This document shows, piece after piece, positions 1 to 19,242 of a stretch of 64,000 bases of DNA; position 1 is the first letter of the stretch; every line of letters starts with the position of its first letter. The notes under the pieces are model-generated. The model did not search any database, was not told the origin of the DNA, and worked only from the letters and a program-made list of their open reading frames with translations. The stretch is from Methanocellales archaeon (GTDB lineage Archaea; Halobacteriota; UBA148): contig JAQUQR010000004.1 in the NCBI GenBank assembly GCA_028715985.1, positions 73,223 through 137,222 on the forward strand, in the 5' to 3' direction. Both the position numbers and the translations under genes were made by a program.

Positions 1-638
1 CGGACAGGATGACCATGTGCAACATGGCGATAGAGATGGGAGCCACTACAGGCATCGTTGAACCAGATGCAAAAACGGAGGCATATGTTAGAGAGCGCAT
101 TCCAGGTTTCACTCTCAAAGAGCCTTTGAGGAGCGATGAGGATGCAGCCTATGAACTCCGGGAGTATGACGTCTCAGATCTGGGACCGCAGGTTGCCTGC
201 CCTCACGGCGTGGATAACGTCAAGAGCGTGAGCGATGTAGAGGGAATCAAGGTAGATCAGGTGTTCATAGGCTCTTGCACAAATGGAAGATTTGAGGATA
301 TGCGGATCGCTGCAAATATCCTGGGAGATCGTTCTATAGCTGAGGGGACCAGGTTGCTCATCATTCCCGCCTCCAGGGAGGAGTATGTCAAGACGCTGAA
401 AGCAGGCTACATCGAGCGATTTATCGATGCAGGCGCGATTGTGGAGGCGCCATGCTGCGGTCCATGCATGGGCGGATTATTTGGGATATTGGGTGATGGG
501 GAGCGTTGCCTCTCAACTTCCAACAGAAATTTTAGAGGCAGGATGGGGAGTGCGAATGCAGAGATATATCTGGGCTCCCCCGCTACCGCCATTGCTTCAG
601 CCATCAAAGGAAGGATTACCGATCCGAGGTCAGTCTAA
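1..638 (+). CDS. Aconitase-family dehydratase large subunit (3-isopropylmalate dehydratase / homoaconitase LeuC/HacA-like), C-terminal fragment; 5' end lies outside the window
   Basis: Frame-3 ORF runs from the window edge to a stop at 638. It carries aconitase-family C-terminal motifs ([32 protein letters not shown]). Confidence 0.75.
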
Positions 639-1566
639 ATCTTTTTAGAAAAAAGCGATTTTATCTAGGGCATTAAATTTTGAAGGTATCTAAATCAGTA
701 GGACCTCCATTTGAATACTCTCTGAAATTGCCCCTCTAAAACGTGAGAATTTTAGTGAAAAAGCTAAATTAAGGAAGTGTAAAGGCCTTTAAAGGGCTAA
801 TTTAACTCATATAAAAGTTTTAATTCTTGGAATATCCCCAGCTTGATCTCAATGCGTTTTATTTTTCTTTTTTTGGCAGGGCAAATATGCGATTTGTGAG
901 CTGGCTTGTAAGTCTTATTTAACATTGAATTTGACTTAAAGTTTGATCCTTTCAGGATTCGTTTTAGACTTTATTTAGTATAGTATGAGACATACATATC
1001 TATCCATGATGCTTTTTTATCCATCCCATCTGTTCTTTTGATGCTCTGGAACAATCTTCTTGGAAAGAAAATTGTGAGTGCATTCTCTTGTGATTCCAGT
1101 CTCTCATCATGATTTTTATGTTAAATGGATTGCGCCTCTGAGCACTTATTACTAAAAAATGTCTCTGACAACCATTTGAAGAATTTGTAACTGTATCTGG
1201 CTCCTACCATCTTTCCAATCTAACACGGTTAAAGCCTCGCCTGTTATGTCTTGATAGAGGACTTTTAGGGTTTTTTGGTAAAGCTGGCAGGATTTTATTT
1301 GAAGACGGATATAACGCAACGCCATCCCAGGAAAGGTAAATTAGATACTTATCAATCTCCTTATCAATCGACTCAATCGACTTTTTCGACCAATAGCGAT
1401 ATGTTTATATATAGTACACTCATAAGGGCATCTTGAAGAGTATATTCTCTTTGAGGGGATAGGGAGGTCATTATAGGGTGGCTAAAACTCAATTTTATAT
1501 GTTGGTTCAGGGTACTATTTATGGGTCTATTGATCTAGGACCGAAAATCTAACGTAGGGATTTGCT

Positions 1567-1586
1567 ATCATATTATATAATATGAT
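1567..1586. promoter_or_regulatory. Perfect 20-bp palindrome ATCATATTATATAATATGAT in the AT-rich 1.1-kb leader upstream of the giant surface-protein gene; candidate operator
   Basis: Sequence equals its own reverse complement. It lies about 160 bp upstream of the 1744 ATG. A TATA-like tttatatata at about 1665-1674 follows it. Confidence 0.3.
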
Positions 1587-1743
1587 GAAATAGGGGAATT
1601 AAAAAATATTTGGGAGGAATATGATAGAAGATTTACGCAAGTCAAAGGCTCAAAAGTTGGGTTTAGGAGAAAAATTTATATATAGTAGCAGATTCATTCT
1701 GTATTTAGTTTTAGCTAAACTGAGGTTAAACTAAGAGGGAAAA

Positions 1744-4700
1744 ATGAAGGGGGAAAAAATGAATAGTAGTAAACCTTTTAAAAATAGCGTTGACAGAAAA
1801 AAGATAACCTCGATAATATTAACAGCGATAATGTTGCTTTCGATATTTTCAGGCATCAGCGCTTCTGTAGCTGGGAATAACAACAACCGTGTTGGCAATA
1901 ACGTTGCTAGTCCGATGGAAGATGAAGGCGTGGGTGCAATGGCAGTCGGTAGCCTTGCAGCTAGCTTACATACATCATCTCCTTCTGCAAATATCGCCAA
2001 CTCGAGTGCTAACTTTACTAATGTCTTTTGGATTCGTTTTACCGCATCAGGTGAAAGTTCGAATATAACAAACATTACAATCACAGAGGCAGGAACGATT
2101 CACGGTACGAGTGAAATAATTGGAGTAGGCGTTAACGATACCGGTGGAACTGTGCTTGCTAAAAGCACTTTTTCTGCTGATAATGGAACGGCTACGCTTA
2201 CCATACCGGGTGGCTTCGAAGTGCCGGTTGGCACGCTGAAAGACCTCTACTTGTGGGTCAACACGACCGGATTTCCGCTTGGGCGTACGATAAAGCTGAC
2301 ATTAACGTCGTTCAATGCAACGGGTCTTGCTTCCGGACAAGCTGTTACAACGTCAGGAGTACCGCTTTCATCGAATGAAATAGCAGGTACTGGAAGGTTA
2401 ACGGCGGCAAACGGTCCAAGTGATGTTGCATCCCGCACCGTTAATGCAGGGGCAAACACAACTGGAATCGTGCTGGCGCAACTCAACTTCAGTGCAGAAA
2501 TCGAAGGATGCACGCTGAATACTGTTATGCTTACGGAAAATGGAACTGCAAACGGTACACAAGATTTCTCTGCTATTTATCTGGTGAATGATACCGATTC
2601 GGATGGCGTTTGGGATTCAAATGAGCCAATAGTAGGGACTACTGTGACTACGTTTTCCAAAGATAATGGCAGCGCAACCATAAGTGGAATTAGTAAAGCG
2701 ATACCGCTCAATGGCTGGTTAAATCTGCTGGTTGTGGTAAACACCACGAACCAGTTCTGGTCCGGTAACACTCTCAAGGTTAACATAACCAATGCGACGG
2801 ACTTCACCGCAACTGGTGCTACTTCGGGAGCAGCAACGGGCACATATGGAACCCCCTCATCGAATACAGCGACAGGGCAGGCAATGATTCAGGTGGCGGC
2901 AGGCGCCAAGCAGCCGTATCTCTCTTATGTGCTGGAAGGTCAAAGAGCATTGGTCGAGAGTGCACAGTTGAACTTCACTGCCATTGCAGGTCAGGTGAAC
3001 ATCACGCAAATTACGCTTGAGCAGTCGACGGTAACCAATTGGACCTATGCGGCCGCTGATACATTCCCCAAAGTCTACATAGATGTGGACGAGGATGGCA
3101 ATGTCACTGCTTTGGATACGCCATTAAACCTAACTGCGCTTAACTTTAAGACTAATAATGTGACTTTGGCGAGCTACGACACTACAATATCGGGCAATTT
3201 CTCAGATTATGCTAAACTAGCGAATGGTACGTTCCCGTATATACACATAGTAACTTTGACTAATGACACAATGGTTACAGCTTCATACCCAGAGTGGTGG
3301 TATAACATCAGCATTACCTACGTCAATAGTACTCATGCTACTGGTCAAACCAATACGACTTGGTCCAATATTACAAACGTCACAGTGGTCGATGCTGCAA
3401 ATGATACCTGGTGGCCTCTTGATATAGGCGCTAGTGAAATAGTGAGAGACATTACAGACATATCGTTCGTTACAGCTCACAATGTATCAGCTGTTGACAT
3501 CGACATCGTCGCAGGTTCACAAGTGATAGACGTTGTCTTGGATAGCAATCTAACAATTGGAAGCGTCAGTGAGACCACTGCAGGACAGGCATCGAAAATC
3601 ATCATAATAGCGGTGAATACAACTTCTGCATGGACTTCGGGCAACTATACGAAAGCATTACCCAATACGATTACAAAATACGGCAACTTCAGTAATTACG
3701 TTGCCTATGATGACACAACCGGGCAGATGACGAGGATATACCAGAACAATGACCCACTAAATACATCCATGAAGCAACTTAGTGCAGCAGTCGTTGGTGC
3801 AGTGTCCAATCCAGAGTTTAAGGTTCAGCTGGGAGCGAACACACCTACTTCCAATGTTGGCAAGAGCACCAATCTGGCTCCTGTGATGCAGTTGAGCTTC
3901 TCATATGGCGGCGTTGTAGGGGCTGATTTGGACTCAAAAGTATACCTGAGGGAATTAATCATTTCAACCAACGGCACGATCAACGAATCAAACAACGTCA
4001 CAGCATGTCTCGTTGTTGACACCAATGGCGATGGGGCAGTGAGTGCCGGTGAAACGATAGTAGCCAGTGTACTTTACTCAACCAATAATCAAACAATCAA
4101 GTTCACGCTCGCCACTCCGATCGAGATAATGCTCAACAATAAAGGCAATATGACATCAGAAGCTCTCATAGCCTACAAGCATTTGCTGATAGCATTCAAC
4201 ACATCTTCGAACATAGTTCTCGGTGAGACGATCAGACTCTACATGGACAACTCGTCCGTAGATTACATCGCCGATACAGGAACCAGCATGGTTGTAAACC
4301 AGACAAGTGCACAACTAATTGGGAACGCGCTAACAGCAGCAGGCTCAATAACAGCAACAAACACAAATGCGGTCACTGCTGGAACGGTTTCATCCGTGGT
4401 TGACGAGACCTACGTAGAACTAATACAGTTGAAGTTTACGGCAAGCAGCACTGAGGCTGTGAACATCACGAGCATAAATGTAACGTGGAACGGCACTGGC
4501 AATGGTTACGAGAAGACAAGCGGAATAGGGGTAATCAACGATACAGATATGGACGGTGTATGGGACATAACAGATACGGAACCGATGTTGAATAAAACGA
4601 CAATTGGAACTAATAACTTAGCATTCCTTAACGTGTCCTATGACAACCACAACATCACCGTTCCAGCAGGCGGGTCTGCCTATGTCTTGATATACGTGAA

Positions 4701-7359
4701 CACGACTGCTACTAGCATAAACACAAGTGATAAGATCGCATTGAACATAACGGCAGCGCCATACCTCAATTATAGCGCTGAGGGGAACGCCTCTAAGGTG
4801 ATCATCGCAGACCTCCAGACGACAACAATCTCTTCGGCAACGATGACTGCGGCTTGGACAGGAAGCATTAGCGCTGCAGGATACAACCTGACCGACAAGA
4901 CATGGGTCGAGGGTGCTCAGACGAACTTCCCAGTGTTGGCATTGAACTTCACAGCAACCAATGAAACGGCAAATATCACTTCGATGGTCCTAAGTGCATC
5001 TGGAACCGCCAATGAATCTGGCAATGTAACGCTAAAGCTGGTAGAGGATGTTGCACCGTTTGGCTCTTACGAGAGCGAGACGATATTAGCTACTGCAACT
5101 TTCACGGCTGACAATGGGGCGGTAACATTAACGCCGTCATCCCAGATTCAGGTGGTCGGTGGAAGCTACACGAAGGTACTTGTGGTCGCAGACATCACCG
5201 CAAAGGTTGAGGCAGGTACAAGCCTGGTGACTTCTTTGCTGGACCCATCTGTGCATTACAATGCGGTAGGTTACTACTCCGGAGCGAGAATCCAGGATGC
5301 AAGCACAACGGCGGTTTCAAACACGACATGGTCAACAGGAAACATTACGGTCCTCGTTGGAGCGAACAATACCATCACTGGACCGGTGGACGCACTGAAT
5401 AACACCTATGTTGAAGTAATGCAGTTGAACTTCTCGGCAACGTTCGGGATGGAAAACGTGAACATCACGGGAATCAACCTGACCGCAATGGGTACGGATC
5501 CATACAACGACACATGGGGAGTTGGACTCATCAACGATACAAATGCCAATGGTCTGATTGATGCCGGTGAAGCAGTAATTGGAAATGGCACATTCGATGT
5601 AAACGGCACGGCAGTAATCAATTTCGACTTTGTAGAGTATTGGAATCTGACGGTCAATGGCTCGGCTGTGCAAGAATGGGCAAATCAAACGTTCAACAAC
5701 ACGATCGTTTACGTGAATACGAGCAGCAACTTCAATGCCAGCGACTGGCTGCAGTTGAGACTGGAGAGCTACAACGCGACGGGCGTTACTTCCGGTCAAT
5801 CGTTAACCGCTTTCGGTACGACGATAACGTCCAACAAGCTCACCGGAACAGGGAACGTGACCGCTATGGATGGAGCCAGTGATGTGCTTAATGAAACAGT
5901 TATAAAGTCTGGTGTGAACACCAGCGTAGTGGTCTGGCAACTAAAACTCACGGCAGGAGCGGCTGAGAACATCACCATAACCAGCATAGACATATCAGAA
6001 AACGGAACCGCCAATGCGGCAACAGATATTGCAAGCATCTACCTGGTGAACGATACAAATGCGAATGGACTATGGAACACGACAGCAGGTGACAGCGGTA
6101 TCATTTCGAACGCAGGAACATTCACCGCCGATGATGGTACAGTAACGCTGACGCTGACTGCAAACAACACGGTACTTGCAGGGAATTCTGTTAATTACCT
6201 GCTGGTTGTGAACACAGCATCCACGTTCTACGAGGGAGAAACACTGTCGTTCTTCATTAACAGGTCAGCTCCAAACGGAGAGCCAACAAGAGTACAGGGA
6301 ATGATTGCAACCGGTGCAACTTCGGAAACAACCGTTTACAACAACTTCACATTCAGTCCAGCTTCGAACAAAACAATTGGGTCTGCCTGCATTGACGTCT
6401 ACGACACGACACAGACAACAGTAGCAATATATAACCAAACTGCCACCAACAAAGAGGTTCTCAGGGTGAACTTCAGTGCACCACAGGGAGCAGTGAACAT
6501 AACGAACATAACGCTGAGGGAGAACGGATCTGCACTGGTAGCACCTGGCGGAGGCATTCAGAATGTCAGTGTTTGGTACAATGGCGTGTGTTACAATAGC
6601 ACCTTGGCCAGTTTGTGGTCAGAGAACGGAACACTCCGCATAGAGACGGTGGGCATGGTCGTTAATGGCACGACCAACGAGGTTACGATAAAAGTGAACA
6701 CGACATCCGCTCTTGCAACTGGCCAGACAATAAACTTCGAACTCAACAGGACGTTAGGCAACGGATACAACGCATCGGGCAATGTTTCATTGAATATTAC
6801 CTCCAGTCAGACAGGCAACATAAGCAACCTGATTACGGTGCAGGGTGCACCATCAGGCGAGATATCCTTGAAGGCAGGTTGGAACTTCATTTCCGTGCCG
6901 AAGAAGCAGGATACCACCAAGGATACCTTTGGAGAGTTACTCGCTGGATGGACGACATGGACTGCATATTCATACAATGCAGCTACGAGTAGTTGGACAT
7001 CGTTGACTGCGAGCAGTTCAATCAATGACGATGTGTTAGCCGGTTACTGGGTCTACGTTGATACTGCGGGAACAGTCTATCTGTCTTACAAAGACGCAAG
7101 TTATTTACCACCACCAAGCAAAGCGCTTACAGGCAATGCATGGAATGCGATAGGCTTCTCGAACACTACTGCTCAGACTGCTGAGAATACATTGAAATCA
7201 GTGGATGGTTCGTGGAGCACAGTGATTGGATGGGATGCAACAAGCCAGAGCTATCAGGATGCAATCATCGAGGGTGACTTGACATCAACCATGAATCCCT
7301 TCCAGGGTTACTGGGTATGGATGACACAGGACGACACACTATCCGCAATAAGTGCCTAG
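1744..7359 (+). CDS. Giant (1871 aa) secreted, heavily N-glycosylation-sequon-rich cell-surface protein (S-layer/adhesin-like) with at least 6 internal ~150-aa repeats carrying DxDxDG Ca-binding-like loops and a divergent 2-copy C-terminal module
   Basis: It is a long uninterrupted ORF. The N-terminal hydrophobic segment (ITSIILTAIMLLSIFSGISASVAG) is a signal-peptide candidate. N-x-S/T sequons are very frequent. A repeated motif QLxF...NITxIxLxENGT...IYLVNDTDxDGxWD recurs. An alternative start is ATG 1759 (MNSS), which is preceded by GGGGG. Confidence 0.8.
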   Translation: MKGEKMNSSKPFKNSVDRKKITSIILTAIMLLSIFSGISASVAGNNNNRVGNNVASPMEDEGVGAMAVGSLAASLHTSSPSANIANSSANFTNVFWIRFTASGESSNITNITITEAGTIHGTSEIIGVGVNDTGGTVLAKSTFSADNGTATLTIPGGFEVPVGTLKDLYLWVNTTGFPLGRTIKLTLTSFNATGLASGQAVTTSGVPLSSNEIAGTGRLTAANGPSDVASRTVNAGANTTGIVLAQLNFSAEIEGCTLNTVMLTENGTANGTQDFSAIYLVNDTDSDGVWDSNEPIVGTTVTTFSKDNGSATISGISKAIPLNGWLNLLVVVNTTNQFWSGNTLKVNITNATDFTATGATSGAATGTYGTPSSNTATGQAMIQVAAGAKQPYLSYVLEGQRALVESAQLNFTAIAGQVNITQITLEQSTVTNWTYAAADTFPKVYIDVDEDGNVTALDTPLNLTALNFKTNNVTLASYDTTISGNFSDYAKLANGTFPYIHIVTLTNDTMVTASYPEWWYNISITYVNSTHATGQTNTTWSNITNVTVVDAANDTWWPLDIGASEIVRDITDISFVTAHNVSAVDIDIVAGSQVIDVVLDSNLTIGSVSETTAGQASKIIIIAVNTTSAWTSGNYTKALPNTITKYGNFSNYVAYDDTTGQMTRIYQNNDPLNTSMKQLSAAVVGAVSNPEFKVQLGANTPTSNVGKSTNLAPVMQLSFSYGGVVGADLDSKVYLRELIISTNGTINESNNVTACLVVDTNGDGAVSAGETIVASVLYSTNNQTIKFTLATPIEIMLNNKGNMTSEALIAYKHLLIAFNTSSNIVLGETIRLYMDNSSVDYIADTGTSMVVNQTSAQLIGNALTAAGSITATNTNAVTAGTVSSVVDETYVELIQLKFTASSTEAVNITSINVTWNGTGNGYEKTSGIGVINDTDMDGVWDITDTEPMLNKTTIGTNNLAFLNVSYDNHNITVPAGGSAYVLIYVNTTATSINTSDKIALNITAAPYLNYSAEGNASKVIIADLQTTTISSATMTAAWTGSISAAGYNLTDKTWVEGAQTNFPVLALNFTATNETANITSMVLSASGTANESGNVTLKLVEDVAPFGSYESETILATATFTADNGAVTLTPSSQIQVVGGSYTKVLVVADITAKVEAGTSLVTSLLDPSVHYNAVGYYSGARIQDASTTAVSNTTWSTGNITVLVGANNTITGPVDALNNTYVEVMQLNFSATFGMENVNITGINLTAMGTDPYNDTWGVGLINDTNANGLIDAGEAVIGNGTFDVNGTAVINFDFVEYWNLTVNGSAVQEWANQTFNNTIVYVNTSSNFNASDWLQLRLESYNATGVTSGQSLTAFGTTITSNKLTGTGNVTAMDGASDVLNETVIKSGVNTSVVVWQLKLTAGAAENITITSIDISENGTANAATDIASIYLVNDTNANGLWNTTAGDSGIISNAGTFTADDGTVTLTLTANNTVLAGNSVNYLLVVNTASTFYEGETLSFFINRSAPNGEPTRVQGMIATGATSETTVYNNFTFSPASNKTIGSACIDVYDTTQTTVAIYNQTATNKEVLRVNFSAPQGAVNITNITLRENGSALVAPGGGIQNVSVWYNGVCYNSTLASLWSENGTLRIETVGMVVNGTTNEVTIKVNTTSALATGQTINFELNRTLGNGYNASGNVSLNITSSQTGNISNLITVQGAPSGEISLKAGWNFISVPKKQDTTKDTFGELLAGWTTWTAYSYNAATSSWTSLTASSSINDDVLAGYWVYVDTAGTVYLSYKDASYLPPPSKALTGNAWNAIGFSNTTAQTAENTLKSVDGSWSTVIGWDATSQSYQDAIIEGDLTSTMNPFQGYWVWMTQDDTLSAISA

Positions 7360-7391
7360 TCAAAGCGCAACACAACAACAAAAAACAAAGA

Positions 7392-7440
7392 TAGGGAGAA
7401 TCAATCTCCCTAACATCTTTTTTTATTTTTATTTTCTTTT
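7392..7440 (+). terminator. Hairpin (AGGGAGA-ATCAA-TCTCCCT) followed by a long T-tract; candidate terminator of the giant gene
   Basis: A 7-bp inverted repeat is directly followed by tttttttatttttattttctttt. Archaeal terminators are oligo-T tracts. Confidence 0.45.
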
Positions 7441-7554
7441 AATTTCATTTTTTCATTGTTGATAAATACCAGTAGTTGATGGGAATGGCAAGAAAAACAA
7501 AAATTTATATTGTATATGGTAGTAAGTAAAGCGGAAAATACAATAAAATAAAAG

Positions 7555-8367
7555 ATGGATGTGAGGATGAAGGGCTATAATAAAAAACAGCTGTTGTATG
7601 CTATCTTGATCGTCTCTTTTTTGATGCTATTTTCGACTGTCGTGGTAGAAGCACAAGCACCAGTATTACCCTGTAGTTTTTATGGCAACGTTACCATCGA
7701 TGGGAAGCCTGCGCCCATAGGGACCGAGATCACAGCGAAAATGGATAATAAAACCTGTGGAAATATGACTGTAAGAGAAGAAGGTAAATATGGGGAATCA
7801 GCTGGGGAAAAATTAAGTGTGACCGGAAATATAGCGGACGAAAACAAGATAATTTCGTTCTACGTGGACGGAGATGAGGCGGAGGAAAAAGCTACATGGC
7901 AAATTGGAGGAGTTAACCGTCTGGATCTTAGCGTTAAGAAATCGAACATACAGACCCCTTCAAGTCCACCCTCTAGTGGTAGCGGGGGGATAAGTCCAAC
8001 CACGCCTGCACCAACGCCATCGTCCACTCTGGTTCCTGCGCCAACTCCAACCCCTACACCAACTTCTACTCCAACACCAACGCCTACCCCAACACCAGCA
8101 CCAACACCAGCACCAACTTCAACACCCCTACCAACACCAGCTCCTACACCAACATCAACTCCCACTCAAATGCCAACAACTACACCGACTCCCGCTCCTG
8201 TTTCTACTCCAAGACTATCGCTCATATCTGAGAGACCATCCTCTGAGAAGCCATCGAATGCCTTTGACTTAAATTCAGAGAAAATTATGCTAGTCTTTGG
8301 TATAATTTTGGTTGTATCAGCTTTGGTTGCATTAATGTTATATCGACGCAAAGGCGAGAAACTTTAG
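7555..8367 (+). CDS. Secreted surface protein with an N-terminal FYGxVTxxGxPAP beta-sandwich-like domain (family A), a Pro/Thr-rich linker and a C-terminal TM anchor with a basic tail (no PGF motif)
   Basis: Signal peptide [23 protein letters not shown]. The domain is shared with the 8464 gene. The linker is PTPTPTPT(S)[12 protein letters not shown]. The C-terminus is [27 protein letters not shown]. The start may be at M5 (7567). Confidence 0.7.
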
Positions 8368-8463
8368 AGATACGAACTGCATTTGTCTATTAAACCAAAA
8401 AGCTTTATTATATAGTAAGAAGTTTAATAAATAGTAAAGTCCAATACCTGAAGGGGCGTAAAG

Positions 8464-10842
8464 ATGAGGCAAATAAGGGGAGATTTAATAAGAAAGTCGA
8501 CTTCGATCGGCGTCATTGGAATGCTTATACTTTCGATGTTAACTATGATGGCAGTGCCATCAGTATCGGGAGTTGACGTCTTTCTACCTGCTAGTTTTTA
8601 TGGAGACGTAACTGTGAATGGGGAACCCGCACCCGTTAATACAGTGGTTACAGGAAGAATAGTTGATGCCGTAGGATCACCTGGTCAGGGTAACATAACG
8701 GTAACCGAAGCAGGCAAATATGGCGTGGCTGCTGGTGAGAAATTAGGTGTTTCAACTGATAACGAAAATGATAACGAAAAAACGATAGAATTCTACATAA
8801 AACTTCCTTCCGGGTCGGAAGGCAAAGCGGATCAAACCGCGACTTTTTCCATTGGTGGTATTACCAAATTGAATTTAACCGCTACGGTGGTAATAGGGAC
8901 GCCACCAACCATAACATCCTATTCACCTACCGATACCACACCGAATGATTACGAGGCTGCGACAAGAACGTTCTCGGTCACCGTTGATCAGCCGACAACA
9001 GTGGCATGGAGTATAAATGGAACCGTGGTCGAAACAGATGCAGGCGTACCTGCTTCTACAGCCGCCAGTTATACGAATGGGAGTGCTGTCGAAGGTTATT
9101 GGTCAGTTTCTGCGGTTGCAACGAACGTTACCTCAGGGTTGTCTGATACACAGACTTGGGAGTGGATGGTGGAGGACATAACGCCACCGGCAAAGGTAAC
9201 TGGATTGACAAGTGACACACCCACTCTTACCACCGTTAACCTTACGTGGGATGCAAGTACAGCCTCAGACTTTTTAAAATATAGCGTGTACAAGAATGGG
9301 GCACTATTGGACAATACCACAAATACATATTATAATGTAACTGGTTTGGAGGCCAGCACAACTTACTACTTTAACGTTTCCGCATGGGATGATAGCGACA
9401 ATGAAGGAGAATTGAGCGCTGGTGTTACCATAACGACGGCTTCCTACCCTGCACCAATTATTGTGGGTTATAACAACGTAACAGGCAGTTCACTCAGTAT
9501 AACGGTTAACGAAATGGAAGCAATACGGTTCAATGCAACTGCCGATCAAGCTATTACCACTTGGAATTGGTTCAGGGATGGGGTAAATCAGATTTGGAAT
9601 TACGATAGCTTTGAAACGTGCTGGAGCGTTAACGGAACCTACAGCGTTGCCGTGAATGCTACCAATGCAAATGGCACATCGAACACGGTTACATGGACGA
9701 TCGTGGTGAATGACATAACTTCGCCAGCGATGGTGACGGGATTAACGAATGGCACGCCAAGTTCCACTGGGGTTGATTTGTGGTGGACAGCAAACACAGA
9801 AGCGGACCTCGTCGGATACAGGGTATATCAGGACGGTTTGTTACTTGTAACCACTGCTAACGCCTACTACAGCGTAACCGGATTATCGCCAGCCACGACA
9901 TATACATTCAACGTTTCGGCATATGATGACAATGCTTTGGAAGGCGAGAACGCAACCATAAGTGTGACCACATCGCTCTATTCGGCACCAACGATCACTT
10001 CCTACACCATATCTAATCGCACCATTGCACCGCCGCAGACCACTGATATAGATGTGGCATTTTCGGAAGTGGTGGAAGCCTGGATACAAATCGAGGATTC
10101 AAACCACAACCTTGTGAAGGAATTGTATCACAGCTCCAGCGTAACCAATCCGACCGCTAAGACTTGGGATGGGACCTACACGAATGCAACCGTTGTTCCA
10201 GATGGCACCTATTACGTAAACGTTACGGGAATAAACGCAACAACTGGCTTGAGCGTGGTTGACAATACGCAGAGTATCGTGGTGGCATCTGAGGTAACCA
10301 TTCAGTACAACCTCGTCAAGAATCCCGGAAGCACGGGCAAGAACTGGATCAGCATACCGCTCACCACAAACATCACAACCGCATCCCAACTGATGTCTGT
10401 AATAGGGTCCAACTGCGATGCAGTCAACCGATGGAATCCTGTTACCCAGAAACCAGAAGGCTGGATCTCACTGATGGGCGGCATGGGCACTAACTTTGCA
10501 ATAGTGCCTGGCGAAGGCTACGAGGTATCGGTTACTGCGAATACGACCTTCAGCGTGACAGGTGCACCTGCAACCATCAGCCAGATTGACCTCGTCAAGA
10601 AACCCGGAAGCACGGGCAAGAACTGGATCGGTTTGCCCTACGACACCACGCTTACGTCTGCATCTACGGTGATGAGTTCAATAGGATCCAACTGCGATGC
10701 AGTCAACCGATGGAACCCTGTTACTCAGAAACCAGAAGGCTGGATCTCACTGATGGGCGGCATGGGCACTAACTTTGCCATCGTAACGGGCAGGGGATAC
10801 GAGGTATCGGTCACAGGCAATGTGACCTGGACACCTGTTTGA
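8464..10842 (+). CDS. Secreted modular surface protein (792 aa): family-A N-terminal domain, PKD-like domains, two fibronectin-III-like domains, an Ig-like domain and two tandem copies of the conserved KNWIS...GYEVSV C-terminal module
   Basis: Signal peptide IGVIGMLILSMLTMMAVPSVSG. FN3-like motifs (VNLTWDAS...YKNG...TxYxFNVSAWDD) occur twice. The C-terminal module copies lie at about 10300-10563 and 10585-10839. Confidence 0.8.
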   Translation: MRQIRGDLIRKSTSIGVIGMLILSMLTMMAVPSVSGVDVFLPASFYGDVTVNGEPAPVNTVVTGRIVDAVGSPGQGNITVTEAGKYGVAAGEKLGVSTDNENDNEKTIEFYIKLPSGSEGKADQTATFSIGGITKLNLTATVVIGTPPTITSYSPTDTTPNDYEAATRTFSVTVDQPTTVAWSINGTVVETDAGVPASTAASYTNGSAVEGYWSVSAVATNVTSGLSDTQTWEWMVEDITPPAKVTGLTSDTPTLTTVNLTWDASTASDFLKYSVYKNGALLDNTTNTYYNVTGLEASTTYYFNVSAWDDSDNEGELSAGVTITTASYPAPIIVGYNNVTGSSLSITVNEMEAIRFNATADQAITTWNWFRDGVNQIWNYDSFETCWSVNGTYSVAVNATNANGTSNTVTWTIVVNDITSPAMVTGLTNGTPSSTGVDLWWTANTEADLVGYRVYQDGLLLVTTANAYYSVTGLSPATTYTFNVSAYDDNALEGENATISVTTSLYSAPTITSYTISNRTIAPPQTTDIDVAFSEVVEAWIQIEDSNHNLVKELYHSSSVTNPTAKTWDGTYTNATVVPDGTYYVNVTGINATTGLSVVDNTQSIVVASEVTIQYNLVKNPGSTGKNWISIPLTTNITTASQLMSVIGSNCDAVNRWNPVTQKPEGWISLMGGMGTNFAIVPGEGYEVSVTANTTFSVTGAPATISQIDLVKKPGSTGKNWIGLPYDTTLTSASTVMSSIGSNCDAVNRWNPVTQKPEGWISLMGGMGTNFAIVTGRGYEVSVTGNVTWTPV

Positions 10843-10845
10843 ATT

Positions 10846-10890
10846 GAATGCACTGATGGTGCATTCATTCCTCCCTTTTTATTTTCATTT
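10846..10890 (+). terminator. Hairpin GAATGCAC-TGATG-GTGCATTC followed by a T-rich tract; candidate terminator
   Basis: An 8-bp inverted repeat lies immediately after the stop at 10842. It is followed by attcctccctttttattttcattt. Confidence 0.45.
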
Positions 10891-10957
10891 ACGGGCTGGC
10901 ACATCGGATAAAATAAAGTAGGGAAGGCATAATCACAAAATGGTGAGGTGAGAGGAA

Positions 10958-13393
10958 ATGCTGAAAAATAAGTTCATTTTTATTTCGGTTTTGATGGTGG
11001 CTTTTCTGGCACTGGCAAGCGGGGCCCAGGCAGCCCACTGGATTGCTGGTACTGTCAACGATGCAGCAGACGGCAAGCCTGCTGATGGGCATACGGTCAT
11101 CATATACTATCTGGGCGACGAAGCCCGTAATAATTCTGGCATCATAGGTCCAACGGTTGAGAATCCTGATATTTTAAATAACAAGTACCAGATTGATGCC
11201 CAAGCGATTCCAGGCCATACATGGAAAGAAGGCGATGTAATCTATGCGAAAGTAATTGACAACGGAGACGGCTATACTGCTGGACCGGTTTCCGTGACTA
11301 CAACAGGTGCAGGATACGATGTTGAGCCTGACATGACCCTTCAAGCCTCTGTAATGGCGAATGCAGGTCCTGACCAGATGGTTGATGAAGATGTTATAGT
11401 ATATTTCAACGGCTCAGCCTCCACTATGGCAGTCAATTACTCCTGGGACTTCGATGCCAGCGATGGAATCCAGGAGGATGCTACAGGAGTTAACGTGAGC
11501 CATGTCTATGCCGATCCCGGTGTATATACAGTAACCCTCACCATAAACGCCGGAGCGAGCAATGACACCCTAATAGTCACCGTAAACGACATCACGTCCC
11601 CAACAGCCAATGCAGGTTCGGATCAGACCGTTTTAAACGGTACAACAGTGACATTTAACGGCACCTTATCCACCGATAACGTCGCCATAGTAAACTACTC
11701 TTGGGACTTCGATGCCAGTAACGGCATCCAGGAGGATGCTACAGGTGCTGTTGTGACCTATCTTTATCCCGCTTTTGGCACCTACACGGCAACCCTTACC
11801 GTATCTGACGCAGCAGGCAACAATGACACGGACACGGTCAATATAACTGTCACGGAGGTCAGAGCAGATGCAGGTCCTGACCAGACGGTTGATGAAGACA
11901 CGGTGGTCTATTTCAACGGTTCCAACTCTTCAGGTGCGTTAAACCACTCCTGGGATTTCGATGTAAGCGACGGCATCCAATCAGATGCCACAGGAGTTAA
12001 CGTGAGCCATATCTACGCTCAACCAGGCGTTTACACCGTAACCCTCACCATAAACGCCGGAGCGAGCAATGACACCCTTGTCGTCACAGTGAATGACATC
12101 ACGCCCCCAACAGCCAACGCAGGTCCAGATCAGAACGTTCTAAACGGCACTCTTGTGCAATTCAATGGAACGTTATCCACCGACAATGTCGCTATAGTAA
12201 ACTACTCCTGGGACTTCGATGCCAGCGATGGCATTCAAGAGGACGCTACAGGTGCTGTTGTGACCCATCTTTATCCCGCTTTTGGCACCTACACGGCAAC
12301 CCTTACCGTATCTGACGCAGCAGGCAACAATGACACTGACATAGTCAACATCACCGTCGCGGCAATAATAGCAGATGCAGGTCCTGACCAGACGGTTAAC
12401 GAGGACATCGTAGTCTATTTCAACGGCTCAGGCTCTTCAGGTGCGTTAAACTACTCTTGGGATTTCGATGCAAGCGACGGCATCCAATCAGATGCCACAG
12501 GAGTTAACGTGAGCCATATCTACGCTCAACCAGGCGTTTACACCGTAACCCTCACCATAAACGCCGGAGCGAGCAATGACACTCTAACGGTCACAGTAAA
12601 GGATGTAACGCCACCGACAGCCAATGCGGGTCCCAACCAAATTGTATTAAACGGCACTTTTGCTGAATTCAATGGATCATCATCCACCGATAACGTCGCT
12701 ATAGTAAACTACTCCTGGGACTTCGATGCCAGCAACGGCATTCAGGAGGATGCTACAGGCGCTATAGTAACCCATCTTTACCCAACCTTTGGCACCTACA
12801 CGGCAACCCTCACCGTATCTGACGCAGCAGGCAACAATGACACTGACACCGTTAACGTCAGCGTAGTGCCTTCAGTTGCACCCATTGGATTGACAGTGGT
12901 GTTAAATGCGGATAATACGGTCACATTAACCTGGGTTGAATCCCTTTTGGGCAATTTTGACATCTATGCATCAAACACATCTGGAGTCAGCCTAGTTACT
13001 CCCATAGCTACAGGTTATGGATATTCTTGGACAGATAACGATGCGGATGCTTATTCCCATAGGTATTATAAGGTCAGAGCCAAGGGAATTATTGGGTCCG
13101 AAACCATTGCAAAATATGACGTTAACCTCGTCAAAAAGCCCGGCGGCACAGGTAAGAATTGGATATCGATGCCTGAAAATCCTGCCATTACAAATGCATC
13201 CTCCTTAATGAAGGCAATAGGGCCCACATGTGACTCCATAAACCGATGGAACCCTGTTACCCAGAAACCAGAAGGCTGGATCTCACTGATGGGCGGCATG
13301 GGCACGAATTTTGCTGTTACACCCTATGAAGGCTACGAGGTATCTGTCAACGCCAACACAACGTTTACTGTTGTGGGAATCATGGGCTATTAG
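10958..13393 (+). CDS. Secreted PKD-repeat surface protein (811 aa): family-B N-terminal domain (AHWIxGTVNDAAD...), three tandem units of 169 aa that are 2 PKD domains each, then one copy of the conserved C-terminal module
   Basis: Signal peptide FISVLMVAFLALASGAQA|AHW. PKD signatures (NYSWDFDASDGI...HxYxxPGVYTVTLTI) recur. The C-terminal module lies at about 13112-13375. Confidence 0.85.
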   Translation: MLKNKFIFISVLMVAFLALASGAQAAHWIAGTVNDAADGKPADGHTVIIYYLGDEARNNSGIIGPTVENPDILNNKYQIDAQAIPGHTWKEGDVIYAKVIDNGDGYTAGPVSVTTTGAGYDVEPDMTLQASVMANAGPDQMVDEDVIVYFNGSASTMAVNYSWDFDASDGIQEDATGVNVSHVYADPGVYTVTLTINAGASNDTLIVTVNDITSPTANAGSDQTVLNGTTVTFNGTLSTDNVAIVNYSWDFDASNGIQEDATGAVVTYLYPAFGTYTATLTVSDAAGNNDTDTVNITVTEVRADAGPDQTVDEDTVVYFNGSNSSGALNHSWDFDVSDGIQSDATGVNVSHIYAQPGVYTVTLTINAGASNDTLVVTVNDITPPTANAGPDQNVLNGTLVQFNGTLSTDNVAIVNYSWDFDASDGIQEDATGAVVTHLYPAFGTYTATLTVSDAAGNNDTDIVNITVAAIIADAGPDQTVNEDIVVYFNGSGSSGALNYSWDFDASDGIQSDATGVNVSHIYAQPGVYTVTLTINAGASNDTLTVTVKDVTPPTANAGPNQIVLNGTFAEFNGSSSTDNVAIVNYSWDFDASNGIQEDATGAIVTHLYPTFGTYTATLTVSDAAGNNDTDTVNVSVVPSVAPIGLTVVLNADNTVTLTWVESLLGNFDIYASNTSGVSLVTPIATGYGYSWTDNDADAYSHRYYKVRAKGIIGSETIAKYDVNLVKKPGGTGKNWISMPENPAITNASSLMKAIGPTCDSINRWNPVTQKPEGWISLMGGMGTNFAVTPYEGYEVSVNANTTFTVVGIMGY
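11357..12877 (+). repeat. Tandem DNA repeat of 3 x about 507 bp inside the PKD gene (each unit encodes two PKD domains), about 90 percent identical
   Basis: The unit boundary GCAGATGCAGGTCCTGACCAG recurs at about 11357, 11864 and 12371. Long identical runs are visible between copies. Confidence 0.8.
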
Positions 13394-13458
13394 GTGGATA
13401 AAAGTATATATATGTAATACGCACATAAAAATAGGGAAAGGGAGGTATCAAAAAAAAG

Positions 13459-14709
13459 ATGAGAGCGAATAAACTTATTTTTATTTCGGTCTTAACAGTG
13501 GCTTTCCTGGCACTGATGAGCGGAGCGCAAGCAGCCCACTGGATTTCTGGAACGGTCAACGATGCCGCAGACAGCACGCCAGCAAACGGACACAAGGTCA
13601 TCATCTACTATCTGGGAGACCAAGCCCATAACGTATCCGACACCATAGGTCCCGCTGGTATGTCTGGTACGAGTAACATGTATATGTGTGATGCTGAGTC
13701 CATTCCAGGTCACGTATGGGCTCCCGGCGATGTAATCTACGCCAAGGTAATTGACACCGGCGACGGCTACACTGCTGGGCCAGTTTCTGTGACTACCACA
13801 GGTGCAGGCTTCGATACTGAGCCTACCATGACACTCGAAATTTGGGTACCGCCACCCATCGTGGCAGAGCCCCAGGCAAGCCCATCGCAAATAAGCATCA
13901 ATACAGGCGTTACGGAACTGAGCGTCAAAGTGTACAAAACCTCTTATGACATTGATACGGTTACAGTAAACCTCTCTCAAATTGGTGGTCTGAGTAATCA
14001 CATGATGAGCCTCAAGGAAGTCATTAACGCTACGGCCTCCATTTATAATTGTACAACCAACTCAAGTGTGGAAGGTACTTTTAGTCTTCCGGTAAATGCC
14101 ACAGACATCTACGGCAATTCCAACACATCCGTTAGCATTTCTCTGGAGGTCACAAGTGCCATTCAAATCCAGTACAACCTCGTCAAAAAGCCTGGAAGCA
14201 CAGGCAAGAACTGGATCAGCATACCTCTTGAAACGAACATTACAACAGCATCCCAATTAATGTCTGCAATAGGATCCAACTGCGATGCAGTCAACCGATG
14301 GAACCCTGTTACCCAGAAATCAGAAGGCTGGATTTCACTATTTGGAGGCATGGGCACTAACTTTGCAATAGTGCCTGGCGAAGGCTACGAAGTATCGGTC
14401 ACAGCAAACACGACTTTCTCAGTCTTAGGAACCATACCCACCACACAAAGCATCAATCTCGTCAAAAAACCTGGCAGCACTGGCAAGAATTGGGTCGGAC
14501 TTCCCTACTTCACAACCAAATCCAATGCCTCTCAACTGATGAGTTCAATAGGATCCAACTGCGATGCAGTCAACCGATGGAACCCTGTTACCCAGAAATC
14601 AGAAGGTTGGATTTCACTATTTGGAGGCATGGGTACGAACTTCAACATCACAACAGGCGCAGGCTACGAAGTATCGGTTACAGGAAATACGACATGGATG
14701 CCTACTTGA
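13459..14709 (+). CDS. Secreted surface protein (416 aa): family-B N-terminal domain, a central Ig-like region and two tandem copies of the conserved C-terminal module
   Basis: Signal peptide FISVLTVAFLALMSGAQA|AHW is nearly identical to those of the 10958 and 14779 genes. Module copies lie at about 14161-14425 and 14452-14706. A TATA-like aagtatatatatg and a GGGAGG RBS lie upstream. Confidence 0.85.
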   Translation: MRANKLIFISVLTVAFLALMSGAQAAHWISGTVNDAADSTPANGHKVIIYYLGDQAHNVSDTIGPAGMSGTSNMYMCDAESIPGHVWAPGDVIYAKVIDTGDGYTAGPVSVTTTGAGFDTEPTMTLEIWVPPPIVAEPQASPSQISINTGVTELSVKVYKTSYDIDTVTVNLSQIGGLSNHMMSLKEVINATASIYNCTTNSSVEGTFSLPVNATDIYGNSNTSVSISLEVTSAIQIQYNLVKKPGSTGKNWISIPLETNITTASQLMSAIGSNCDAVNRWNPVTQKSEGWISLFGGMGTNFAIVPGEGYEVSVTANTTFSVLGTIPTTQSINLVKKPGSTGKNWVGLPYFTTKSNASQLMSSIGSNCDAVNRWNPVTQKSEGWISLFGGMGTNFNITTGAGYEVSVTGNTTWMPT

Positions 14710-14778
14710 GTCAAAAAGAAAAAATTAATAATTGAATTAGAAAAAAATACTGAATAGGAAGTGAGAAGGGAGAAAAAG

Positions 14779-16143
14779 ATGAAACAGAAAATATGTCTTG
14801 TATTTGTCTTAACAGTGGCTTTCTTGGCACTGATGAGCGGGGCTCAAGCAGCCCACTGGATTTCTGGAACGGTCAACGATGCCGCAGACAGCACGCCAGC
14901 AAACGGACACACGGTCATCATCTACTATCTGGGAGATGAAGCCAATTATGTATCCGACACCATAGGTCCAACCGGCGCATCTGGTACAAATAACATGTAT
15001 ATGTGCGATTCGGAGTCCATTCCAAACCATGTATGGGCTCCCGGCGATGTGATCTACGCGAAAGTAACAGACAATGGAGATGGCTACACCGCTGGACCGG
15101 TTTCCGTGACTACAACAGGTGCAGGCTTTGATGTTATGCCTGCCATGACACTTCAGGCAGCACCAGACACAACAGCACCTGTGATAACAAGCCCAACAGC
15201 AACCCCATCTTCAATACCTGCGGATGGAGCTACGACATCTGTGTTGAACGCAACGGTAACGGATAATGTCGGCATCGCAAGCGTTACAGTGGACCTCTCT
15301 ACAATAGGGGGCTCTGCTACGACAGCGATGACGAAGGTTGGCACTACAGACGTTTACAGCGTAACCACGACTGCATCGACATCGACAGCCTTAGGAACCA
15401 AAAGCTTAACAGTCACTGCGACTGACACTAATACCACTCCGAATACGGCAACCAGTAGCATTTCATTGACTGTTACAGCCGTACCAGACACATTTGCACC
15501 CATAGTTACCAACCCAACTGCGACGCCATCCACCATATACGCAAACGGGATTGCAACATCTCAGTTGAGCGTAACGGTAACGGATGGTACTGGCATCGCA
15601 AGCGTTACAGTGAACCTCTCTGCAATAGGGGGCTCTGCTACGACAGCGATGACGAAGGTTGGCACTACAGACGTTTACAGCGTAACCACGACCGCAGCGC
15701 CAACGACAGCACCTGGGACCTACAACTTGGCTGTTACTGCGACAGACAGCAGTACGAACGCTAACACCAACACATCGGTTAGCATTTCATTGACGGTTCA
15801 GGCGTTGCCTGTGACCATCACGTCAGTCTCGATCGACGATTCAACCGCCAGCAAGGGACAGAACTTCACTGCGCGCATAAACATGAGTTCAACTGTTACT
15901 GGGTGGTATGTCGTTGTTGTCAGTGGAATTGAATCCGGCGGAGAAGGTATAGCTGGTATAGGAACGGTCTATTTAACTGCAAGTCAGTCTGTAACGAATA
16001 TGCCTGTACTCGTGCATATCCCGTCTCAGGCAACAGTGGGTAGTTATACCCTCTATGCAGGAGCATATGCGATAGGTGACTATCCAGCAAACCTAGCAAG
16101 CATAATAGACCATGCAGGGCCTGTGACTGCGACGGTCACATGA
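14779..16143 (+). CDS. Secreted surface protein (about 455 aa): family-B N-terminal domain, 2 x 106-aa tandem Ig-like repeats and a distinct C-terminal beta-domain; it lacks the KNWIS module
   Basis: The ORF track starts at 14761. ATG 14779 (MKQKICLVFVL) is preceded by GAAGGGAG. The N-terminal coding sequence is about 95 percent identical in DNA to the 13459 gene. Confidence 0.8.
   Translation: MKQKICLVFVLTVAFLALMSGAQAAHWISGTVNDAADSTPANGHTVIIYYLGDEANYVSDTIGPTGASGTNNMYMCDSESIPNHVWAPGDVIYAKVTDNGDGYTAGPVSVTTTGAGFDVMPAMTLQAAPDTTAPVITSPTATPSSIPADGATTSVLNATVTDNVGIASVTVDLSTIGGSATTAMTKVGTTDVYSVTTTASTSTALGTKSLTVTATDTNTTPNTATSSISLTVTAVPDTFAPIVTNPTATPSTIYANGIATSQLSVTVTDGTGIASVTVNLSAIGGSATTAMTKVGTTDVYSVTTTAAPTTAPGTYNLAVTATDSSTNANTNTSVSISLTVQALPVTITSVSIDDSTASKGQNFTARINMSSTVTGWYVVVVSGIESGGEGIAGIGTVYLTASQSVTNMPVLVHIPSQATVGSYTLYAGAYAIGDYPANLASIIDHAGPVTATVT
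15160..15797 (+). repeat. Tandem 2 x about 318-bp repeat with an 80-bp core of near-100 percent identity, inside the 14779 gene
   Basis: The stretch ctctct(a/g)caatagggggctctgctacgacagcgatgacgaaggttggcactacagacgtttacagcgtaaccacga occurs twice. Confidence 0.8.
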
Positions 16144-16153
16144 CTCTTTTGAT

Positions 16154-16936
16154 TTGTGGGGAGATGAACTAACCATGAAAAAAAGAGTTGAATGGGGAAT
16201 TGTTTTAGCAATTCTCGTATTGGCATCTTCATTAATCGCACCCGCATCTGCTGTAGATCAGCTTGCTATTTCAGTCTCTCCTGATCCAGCGGTTCAAGAC
16301 CTAGCCTTAACGGTAACCGTTACAGCGTCAGGCAGTCCTGTCTCAGGCGTATTCGTACAGTTTATCCTGAATGGTGGAACGCCAATATATGCATCGACGG
16401 ATGCAAGCGGTCAAGCGATATTTAAACCGCTTCTGACAGGCACATTGGAGATAATTGCGACAAAATCAGGGTATCTAACCGCAACTAAATCTGTATCGGT
16501 TGGGGTGGCGCCTACGCCTACACCCACGCCCACACCTACACCCACGCCTACGCCCGTAACTCCTGGAACAGGTGGCGGCGGGTACGTACCGTCACCTACA
16601 CCGACGGCAACACCAACAGCAACACCAGCGCCAACAGCAACACCAACAGCAACACCAACAGCAACACCAACAGCAGCACCAGCACCCACACCAGCACCCA
16701 CACCAGCACCCACACCTGCACCCACACCTGCGCCAACACCGAAACCAACACCAGCACCTACACCAGCACCCACACCAGCGCCTACACCAAAACCAACACC
16801 AGCACCTACAGTCAGACCAACGCTAGCCCCAGCTCCAACACCCACGCCAACGCCTGGTATACCGGGATTTGAGGCAGCCTTCGCAATCGTTGGACTCCTA
16901 GCGGTTGCATATTTGATTAGACGAAGAGAATATTAA
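16154..16936 (+). CDS. Secreted PGF-CTERM protein (archaeosortase A substrate) with a PEGA/carboxypeptidase-regulatory-like beta-domain and a long Pro/Thr/Ala linker
   Basis: Signal peptide [18 protein letters not shown]. The C-terminus [27 protein letters not shown] is the canonical PGF-CTERM pattern (PGF, then TM, then Arg-rich end). The gene starts 11 bp after the previous stop. Confidence 0.85.
16508..16858 (+). repeat. Low-complexity microsatellite-like DNA (ACACCAGCACC-type units) encoding the PT/PA linker; it generates artefactual ORFs in other frames
   Basis: Tandem acaccagcacccacaccagc units. The antisense ORF (16411..16845) is poly-GV and the +2 frame ORF is poly-QH. Confidence 0.8.
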
Positions 16937-18251: not shown

Positions 18252-18267
18252 ATGTGGGGAATGGAAA

Positions 18268-19234: not shown

Positions 19235-19242
19235 ATAGATAA

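Follow-up and report, generated by a model that had tools for sequence, protein, structure and literature searches.

What is the protein encoded by the giant gene at positions 1744 to 7359 of this archaeal DNA, and why do calcium-loop-like motifs recur in it together with N-glycosylation sequons? We addressed this question in the 64,000-nucleotide (nt) stretch as a whole, here called the window, which comes from a metagenome-assembled genome (MAG) of a Methanocellales archaeon. The first-pass annotation had described a giant glycoprotein with internal repeats and had speculated that it is a scaffold for smaller module-bearing neighbours. We consider it fairly probable that the product is a secreted giant cell-surface glycoprotein without a membrane anchor of its own, with a structural or adhesive function as an envelope component or surface fibre, and not a receptor scaffold. 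Its architecture comprises a signal peptide, nine ancient, position-specific beta-sandwich domains and a virtually sequon-free tandem module at the C-terminus. The protein is already public as 'hypothetical protein PHD13_03215' [an identical NCBI record of a Methanocellales archaeon MAG, 1866 amino acids (aa)]. It would work like known Ca2+-loop tandem beta-sandwich surface proteins and archaeal surface glycoproteins, and it falls outside every named family tested (EF-hand, dockerin, cohesin and known S-layer families).

The repeats were detected by BLAST of overlapping fragments against the protein and then delineated by an iterated hidden Markov model (HMM). Off-diagonal matches among the fragments reached E-values down to 1.8e-27, and the HMM yielded eight clear units with domain independent E-values (i-E) of 1e-37 to 1e-58. 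The ninth unit, R3 (residues 393 to 698), matched the HMM with its N- and C-terminal halves, between which an insertion is nested. The protein therefore shows significant internal periodicity, with nine diverged repeats of ~160 aa; the 'at least six' reported at first were real but undercounted (Table 1). Identity between the repeats averages 28% (range 17–36%). Searches for repeats in the DNA of the gene returned only a 42-nt similarity at two loops, and from this lack of DNA-level repetition we conclude that the repeats are old. R2 is 45–80% identical to its positional orthologues in other species versus 21–34% to its sister units, and all complete family members possess 9–10 repeat units. 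The ~115-aa insertion in R3 is a mobile sub-domain placed into the beta-sandwich.

The protein has six copies of the motif Dx[DN]x[DNS]G (D1 at residues 283, 447, 759, 933, 1265 and 1437), where shuffles predict 0.25. All six loops lie at one and the same position within the repeat, and the loop is lost in R1, R6 and R9. The loop strings quoted in the first-pass annotation are all present. Four of the six loops are framed by an N-D-T sequon, with Asn at position 0 and Thr at position 2. By composition, such a frame has a chance of 0.0235 per loop (binomial P = 4e-6 for four or more of six), so the proposed coincidence of loop and sequon is far above chance.

We derived a loop consensus from 123 loops in 22 family proteins. 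Position 1 is Asp in 100%, followed by [DN] at position 3, [DNS] at position 5, Gly at position 6, a hydrophobic residue at position 8 (116 of 123), [DNST] at position 9 and [DE] at position 12 (98 of 123). Over positions 1–12, this consensus reads as the 12-residue loop of EF-hands and dockerins. Compared with positions 1–12 of PROSITE PS00018, five of the six loops fit if any hydrophobic residue is accepted at position 8 and three fit strictly (0.02–0.03 expected), but the full pattern, which includes the hydrophobic position 13 of the exiting helix, had no match in the protein. When the repeat profile was searched against all PDB sequences, only dockerin (2y3n_B, E = 0.03) and EF-hand loops were matched, with E ≥ 0.03, and only the loop residues of the repeat aligned to 2y3n_B. 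Pfam EF-hand models gave sub-threshold matches at the loop in several units.

AlphaFold2 was run on R2 heading an alignment of 52 diverse units. The resulting model was an all-beta sandwich with a mean predicted local distance difference test (pLDDT) score of 93.5 and a predicted TM-score of 0.87. DSSP placed the 12-residue loop (unit residues 55–66; local pLDDT ~98) between strands 47–54 and 68–73, that is, in a strand-loop-strand hairpin. A canonical EF-hand domain (helix-loop-helix) was rejected because the modelled loop lies between two beta strands and the full PS00018 pattern is absent. A dockerin domain was also rejected: the giant has one loop per 160-aa beta domain, whereas dockerins have ~70 aa with two duplicated 22-residue segments and helices. 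Pfam gave no dockerin match for the giant or its units. The likeness to EF-hands and dockerins noted at first thus holds for the loop but not for the domain.

For loops of the DxDxDG type (Dx[DN]xDG), 16 or more structural contexts have been described, strand-loop-strand among them, with near-identical Ca2+ binding; such loops are biased to secreted proteins and rarely reported in archaea (PMC3123361). The giant has this motif at a conserved structural position, in a strand-loop-strand context of an extracellular protein. Acidic or amide residues occupy positions 1, 3 and 5, position 6 is Gly, position 8 is hydrophobic and an acidic ligand follows later, which would place the giant's loops in the same class. 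It differs from the described cases by its host fold, an unannotated ~160-aa sandwich, and by the sequon with which the archaeal members frame the loop. We infer that the giant's loops bind Ca2+ structurally.

With 110 N-x-S/T sequons (x not Pro; 81 NxT and 29 NxS), the giant has 5.88 sequons per 100 aa or one per 17.0 residues, in line with the earlier estimate by eye of one per 15–20. More than half of its Asn residues (110 of 187) fall within sequons, and R9 is the densest unit (10 per 100 aa). The protein consists of 10% Asn and 23.5% Ser+Thr. In composition-matched shuffles, 43 sequons were expected (z = 12.4), which corresponds to a ~2.5-fold excess. The reversed control [ST]-x-N, with the same composition and the same i/i+2 periodicity, occurs 52 times. 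Cytoplasmic open reading frames (ORFs) of the window have 0–0.8 sequons per 100 aa, ~15 times less than the giant, and the other secreted proteins of the cluster have 0–3.95. The sequon frequency is thus clearly above background. In relatives, the density reaches one per 13 residues. In the archaeal family alignment, nine columns hold a sequon in 40–79% of the units, with a mean column identity of only 30%.

The S-layer protein SlaA of Sulfolobus acidocaldarius has 31 sequons in 1,395 aa, and its C-terminal domain, with one site per 30–40 residues, was credited with a 'remarkably high glycosylation density' (PMC2948927). Reviews tie high glycosylation density to thermophily and acidophily (PMC5744192). 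The density in the giant is about twice that reported for the SlaA C-terminal domain. Measured against characterised proteins, it is fair to call it extreme for archaeal surface proteins, as had been proposed. The enrichment of sequons beyond composition, and at conserved sites, is what is expected of an AglB-dependent N-glycoprotein, and most of the sequons are probably glycosylated by AglB. A Pfam/NCBIfam scan of ~28 of the ~44 window ORFs of at least 150 aa found no agl genes.

A word-indexed search returned 22 homologues, all archaeal or metagenomic and all unannotated. An exhaustive HMMER search with the repeat profile retrieved 2,939 cluster representatives (clusters at 50% identity) at E ≤ 1e-3, 1,137 at E ≤ 1e-10 and 306 at E ≤ 1e-30. 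Many of these proteins are giant; the longest has 7,176 aa, and the number of repeats goes as high as 29. Among the named members are a 'FG-GAP/VCBS repeat-containing protein' of Planctomycetota, a 'MYXO-CTERM domain-containing protein', proteins of Ca. Wallbacteria and, among archaea, of Ca. Aenigmarchaeota; many unnamed ones end in bacterial-type sorting signals. Neither Pfam nor NCBIfam has a model for the repeat, and in these proteins, too, Pfam lacks a model for it. Most clusters of the family would be giant bacterial surface proteins.

We surveyed the sequons in 139 newly retrieved proteins from the 150 best matches (the other 11 were family members already included). The density was bimodal: 91 proteins had <1.5 sequons per 100 aa and 12 had ≥4. 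The 91 sequon-poor proteins displayed no asymmetry between N-x-S/T and S/T-x-N, and bacterial homologues of the repeat fold had 0–2 sequons per 100 aa. Alignment columns were then compared between 253 units from sequon-rich and 736 units from sequon-poor proteins (989 in total). The loop columns were kept in both groups, slightly better in the sequon-poor units [86 versus 97% for D1, 87 versus 91% for G6 and 80 versus 94% for D/E12]. The sequon columns differed sharply. Asn was found in sequon-rich units at columns 19 (73%), 28 (65%), 37 (44%), 53 (loop position 0; 61%) and 103 (79%), where sequon-poor units have Arg, Thr/Arg, Ser, Arg and Asp, respectively; at column 55 (loop position 2), Thr (65%) stands against Val/Ala/Leu. 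We conclude from these differences that the loop is ancestral and the sequons are a lineage-specific overlay. The sequons, including the N-D-T frame at the loop, appear to be an archaeal overlay that mostly replaces charged surface residues.

The last 165 aa of the giant consist of two copies of a ~75-aa module with a single sequon, versus 5–10 per 100 aa in the repeats. Three downstream proteins have a 'KNWISIPL..NRWNP..GYEVSV' module, single or in two copies, at their C-terminal end, and hhalign aligned the giant's and the neighbours' modules over their full length (E = 3.6e-5). A database search with the joint profile found 58 further module proteins, from Methanocellales, Halobacteriota and Thermoplasmata. 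Their N-terminal domains vary (NosD, fn3, Big_13, Ig_7, TSP3_bac and others), and some proteins comprise only a signal peptide and the module pair. The module, usually paired, occupies the extreme C-terminus in 59 of 62 proteins. This place on varied proteins suggests that it behaves as a shared sorting or anchoring domain. All complete Methanocellales-type giants end in the module pair, and the C-terminus of a DPANN-type giant gave a marginal match to the module HMM (E 1e-3 to 4e-2).

Taken together, these results suggest the following model for the secreted glycoprotein. Ca2+ in the loops would make every domain more stable and might also make the array stiffer, a role it has in other extracellular proteins of the DxDxDG type. 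With most sequons glycosylated by AglB, the domains would form an extended rod covered by an uncharged layer of glycans. The sequon-free pair of modules at the C-terminus would serve in protein-protein attachment and tether the giant, like the fn3 and PKD proteins encoded next to it, to the envelope; the point of attachment may be a small anchored protein with an 'SFYG' domain. Surface location and attachment through the C-terminal pair are predicted. Staphylococcal Sdr B repeats, BIg repeats of RTX adhesins, and cadherins form Ca2+-stiffened tandem beta-sandwich stalks. The giant resembles them in its tandem ~110–160-aa beta-sandwiches with EF-hand-like loops, in the very large size of the surface protein and in the proposed structural role of Ca2+. 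In these systems, the repeats are near-identical and vary in copy number, and the anchors are covalent or belong to secretion systems, whereas the giant has a fixed number of heavily sequon-laden repeats with 28% identity, a novel C-terminal module as putative anchor and no known sequence homology to them.

Several observations weigh against this model. The fold cannot depend on Ca2+, since three of the nine repeats are without the loop. The hhalign probability for the relation between the two kinds of module was only 71%, the AlphaFold2 model of the C-terminal domain was poor (pLDDT 60.6), and Foldseek found no credible match to it (all probabilities <0.25). Contrary to prediction, the giant's C-terminal domain was not shared by its neighbours at the DPANN-type locus. 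In a scan of 185,579 GTDB species representatives, only four had a close homologue, all of them uncultured Methanocellales/Methanocellaceae MAGs, and with the patterns used none was found in cultured Methanocella; the giant is thus not a general envelope protein of Methanocellales. The labels 'bacterial' and 'archaeal' for the two sequon groups rest on few named records and on C-terminal sorting signals; a further look-up of the clusters contributed hardly any taxonomic names.

The family provides a clean natural experiment on N-glycosylation: one ancient domain is sequon-poor in Bacteria and has 6–8 sequons per 100 aa at fixed surface positions in Archaea, in place of charged residues. A density about double that called remarkable in thermoacidophile S-layers thereby occurs in a methanogen lineage. 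The search also exposes a large unmodelled domain family (~2,900 clusters at 50% identity, proteins of up to ~7,000 aa) with a conserved putative Ca2+ loop. The tandem C-terminal module and the conserved anchored neighbour may represent an undescribed way to attach archaeal surface proteins. These findings do not overturn current understanding but are useful for domain annotation and archaeal glycobiology.

A possible though tentative alternative is that the giant forms the canopy of a two-component S-layer, with the SFYG neighbour as membrane stalk in the manner of SlaA/SlaB and with Ca2+ aiding the stability of lattice or domains. The giant is large, secreted and sequon-laden and has no anchor of its own, its gene is the first after a strongly conserved promoter-like block, and its diverged, position-specific domains are fixed at 9–10 across the family. 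Moreover, S-layer proteins have been reported from Methanocellia in a survey based on structures, which gives no detail (bioRxiv 10.1101/2024.05.28.596244). The neighbour is a candidate membrane partner or stalk of the giant. Its relatives were found near the giant gene, in the same cluster, at every locus examined (L001–L004 and L006). They lie directly downstream of the giant and are 64–70% identical in L001–L003, lie ~5.5 kb downstream in L004 of the distant P0014 lineage (E = 1e-8 to 1e-12), and again lie directly downstream at the DPANN-type locus L006 (E = 2e-7 to the L004 protein). This recurring pair of an anchor-less giant and a small anchored protein recalls SlaA/SlaB and, although circumstantial, is the chief argument both for an S-layer-like role and for the anchoring step in the model of a tethered surface glycoprotein. 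In S. acidocaldarius, too, a large, secreted, anchor-less, N-glycosylated protein stands beside a small anchored partner (PMC2948927, PMC5744192). SlaA, however, has ~2.2 sequons per 100 aa versus 5.9 in the giant and is unrelated to it in sequence and family. In addition, the host of the giant is a Methanocellales archaeon and not a thermoacidophile.

Other findings speak against an S-layer. Of the features common to archaeal S-layer proteins, the giant has the signal peptide and the many sequons. Its C-terminus is a soluble module pair, and no transmembrane segment or PGF-CTERM signal was seen there in the translation. Pfam and NCBIfam scans of the whole giant gave no match, including none to an S-layer family. 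Close homologues are confined to the four uncultured representatives, and its relatives in bacteria are giant proteins that resemble adhesins and carry sorting signals. Codon usage as a proxy for expression was uninformative (effective number of codons, Nc, 52–61 in all genes).

We regard it as unlikely, but worth weighing, that the giant is a multivalent Ca2+-dependent lectin or adhesin, whose domains, similar to carbohydrate-binding modules (CBMs), bind partner cells, plant or soil polymers or the cell's own glycans in attachment or aggregation. Foldseek of the R2 model against the PDB returned nothing at E ≤ 1e-3. The best matches were N-terminal carbohydrate-binding domains of Bacteroidetes GH33 sialidases (6mrx, 4fj6, 9db6, 7qy9, 4bbw and 6mnj; TM-score 0.45–0.57, E ≥ 2.4e-3, 7–14% identity), and GH123 N-domains and other CBMs were also matched (TM-score 0.4–0.57 overall). 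The units of the window, including R2, remained below Pfam thresholds. Two of the 52 family units matched BNR_assoc_N (PF14873, the same sialidase domain; best E = 1.3e-5), which was the only non-EF-hand Pfam family matched by more than one unit at E ~1e-5, and one homologue has a precomputed PF14873 match. The modelled repeat may therefore be a CBM-like sandwich distantly related to BNR_assoc_N. Many CBMs use Ca2+, and bacterial relatives pair the domain with FG-GAP/VCBS repeats in giant surface proteins. The fold similarity is, however, only moderate, no ligand-binding residues could be mapped, and dense glycosylation on all faces would leave little free ligand surface. The sialidase domain, moreover, occurs once per enzyme and not in arrays, and the loop and the sequons are not features of its family as far as tested. 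A lectin function would overlap with that of a structural or adhesive surface glycoprotein and does not exclude it.

A broader and rather improbable idea is that the cluster at 1744–16936 encodes an undescribed modular envelope system of archaea. The sequon-free tandem 'GWN...GYW' module would be a new non-covalent anchor, comparable in function to dockerin or SLH domains, by which the giant and the fn3/PKD proteins dock onto the membrane-anchored SFYG stalk or onto the Ca2+-loop repeats of the giant. The giant would be the canopy or scaffold of a two-component S-layer-like or cellulosome-like assembly.

The scaffold proposed in the first-pass annotation, in which the nine repeats act as cohesin analogues for the neighbours' C-terminal modules (as dockerin analogues), is very unlikely. 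The clostridial scaffoldin CipA has nine cohesins and a type II dockerin. Formally, the giant is alike, with nine beta-sandwich repeats followed by a divergent, docking-type C-terminal module and with several neighbours whose C-termini carry a small conserved module once or twice. Furthermore, dockerin Ca2+ loops were, with those of EF-hands, the only type of PDB sequence matched by the repeat, and cohesin 6kgf_C was among the weaker matches to the R2 model (TM-score 0.39/0.42, E = 1.3e-2). There was, however, no cohesin or dockerin family match in Pfam, and the giant's repeats are highly diverged, whereas those of CipA are near-identical. They are closer to positional orthologues (45–80%) than to each other (17–36%), which argues that they are not interchangeable receptors. 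The Ca2+ loops are in the large repeats and not in the small modules, the reverse of cohesin-dockerin pairs, and the giant itself carries the module class of its putative cargo. That module also occurs on many proteins of lineages in which no giant was found, and the dense sequons of the repeats leave little bare interface.

Least probable of all, and close to refuted, is that the sequon excess is a by-product of the Asn/Thr-rich composition of beta strands, in which N-x-T suits the in/out alternation of exposed strands, because the excess exceeds both shuffles and the reversed control, falls in nine conserved columns despite the low repeat identity, and is missing from bacterial homologues of the same fold and nearly so from the giant's own C-terminal modules.

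Table 1. Features of the giant glycoprotein gene and its neighbours (positions in the window; residues counted from ATG 1744)
Feature	Position	Strand	Residues	Description
Promoter-like element	1665..1684	+		Purine-rich BRE (B recognition element)-like AGGAGAAAAA (1665-1674), then TATA box TTTATATATA (1675-1684)
Giant glycoprotein gene	1744..7359	+	1871 aa	From ATG 1744; ORF calling and translation
Predicted N-terminal Sec-type signal peptide	1744..1863	+		Basic n-region ...DRKK, hydrophobic ITSIILTAIMLLSIFSGI, then SA-S
R1	1984..2427	+	81-228	Ca loop lost (VNDTGG-TVLA); 8 sequons; HMM i-E 1.5e-48
R2	2428..2919	+	229-392	Intact loop N-DTDSDGVWDSNE (D283-E294), overlapping N282-D-T sequon; 9 sequons
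R3	2920..3837	+	393-698	Intact loop DVDEDGNVTALD (D447-D458), in-loop sequon N453-V-T; 21 sequons
R3 nested insertion	~3253-3597	+	~504-618	~115 aa, 'WWYNISITYVN...'
R4	3838..4374	+	699-877	Intact loop DTNGDGAVSAGE (D759-E770); position 0 without sequon
R5	4375..4884	+	878-1047	Intact loop N-DTDMDGVWDITD (D933-D944), overlapping N-D-T sequon
R6	4885..5376	+	1048-1211	Degenerate loop (EDVAPFGSYESE)
R7	5377..5886	+	1212-1381	Intact loop N-DTNANGLIDAGE (D1265-E1276), overlapping N-D-T sequon; 16 sequons
R8	5887..6411	+	1382-1556	Loop N-DTNANGLWNTTA (from D1437), overlapping N-D-T sequon; position 12 not acidic
R9	6412..6861	+	1557-~1706	Loop lost; 15 sequons; HMM i-E 2.2e-37
C-terminal tandem module pair	6862..7356	+	1707-1780 and 1797-1871	'GWNxI..P ... 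GYWV'
Small membrane-anchored protein	7555..8367	+		Signal peptide, 'SFYG..PAP' beta domain, Pro/Thr-rich linker, C-terminal transmembrane segment
fn3 protein	8464-10842	+		Secreted; ends in 'KNWISIPL..GYEVSV' module(s)
6xPKD protein	10958-13393	+		Secreted; ends in 'KNWISIPL..GYEVSV' module(s)
Third secreted neighbour	13459-14709	+		Ends in 'KNWISIPL..GYEVSV' module(s)

The giant gene is the sole long ORF at its position, and its translation is uninterrupted. Two antisense ORFs (1731..2084 and 5332..5799) were rejected as spurious, given their location within the conserved coding sequence. A second in-frame ATG at 1759 is the start in all homologues and in the NCBI record and is preceded by a purine-rich GGGGGA stretch. 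It is the probable true start, which would give a product of 1866 aa. A 15-nt unit (AAGAGGGAAAAAATG) is present in 2.1 copies at 1733–1763 and produces the two in-frame ATGs, each of which has a purine-rich Shine-Dalgarno-like stretch before it. The signal peptide was read from the translation and is kept in the homologues; signal peptidase would cleave between SA and S.

The promoter-like block sits ~75 nt upstream of ATG 1759. It is invariant in the window and in three homologous loci whose giants are 62–70% identical at the protein level, and it would function as an archaeal BRE/TATA promoter. The intergenic region upstream of the giant (639–1743) is unusually long (1.1 kb), and its length and partly its sequence are kept in the relatives. 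A second invariant TATA-like block, CGACCAATAGCGATATGTTTATATA, lies ~330 nt upstream of the first and is followed by a conserved TCTCTTTGAGGGGATAGGGAGGT (~1382–1410 and ~1446–1470). These elements could belong to a second promoter, a small RNA or a small ORF. An Rfam scan of window positions 1–20000, which include this region, found nothing.

In the relatives with giants 62–70% identical, the gene order is HacA/aconitase, 1.1–1.4 kb of intergenic DNA, the giant, small secreted proteins, and the fn3 and PKD proteins. A PGF-CTERM neighbour and archaeal housekeeping genes in the window provide an archaeal context. In L004 (6803–11734) and L005, a block of mobile-element and toxin-antitoxin genes parts the giant from the SFYG partner genes; it includes a Y1_Tnp transposase, UPF0175/DUF3368, UPF0150 and an ATPase_2 gene.

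The small anchored protein of the window (7555–8367, 270 aa) resembles a fusion of two adjacent genes of the relatives, s1 and s2, which were compared at L001 15800–16985 and L002 15795–17046. The s1 product (172–176 aa) has the SFYG domain and a transmembrane segment, and the s2 product (215–240 aa) has a second beta domain, a Pro/Thr linker and a transmembrane segment. In the window protein, the N-domain of s1 is joined to the linker and transmembrane segment of s2. SFYG is also an N-module of the 8464 protein. Another, near-identical N-module of ~110 aa ('AHWI[AS]GTVNDAADG.PA.GH.VIIYYLGD...GDGYTAGPVSVTTTGAG'), without Pfam match, is shared by the 10958, 13459 and 14761 proteins (window 10958–16143). 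Across the cluster, N-modules are combined in varying ways with fn3/PKD/Big middles and with C-terminal modules or anchors. In the 260-aa protein encoded at 16154–16936, a signal peptide and a CarboxypepD_reg-like domain are combined with an extremely long Pro/Thr/Ala linker and a PGF-CTERM signal. Unlike its neighbours, this protein has zero sequons, and it is therefore probably O-glycosylated and lipid-anchored.

Beyond the window, the insertion element of R3 ('WWYNISITYVNSTHATGQTNTTW...') is present in at least four copies in the homologue P0010 and in another repeat of P0012. The sequon-poor giants P0053, P0042 and P0079 have a GWN...GYW-type module (full-sequence E = 3e-10 to 7e-5), which lies 250–350 residues before the C-terminus and is not terminal. 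Since these proteins are of the bacterial type, the module is not restricted to archaea. Farther downstream in the window (39539–42868), RNA polymerase subunit B is encoded by a single ORF of 1109 aa with Rpb2 domains 1–7, followed by A' and A''; in many methanogen lineages, rpoB is split into B' and B''.

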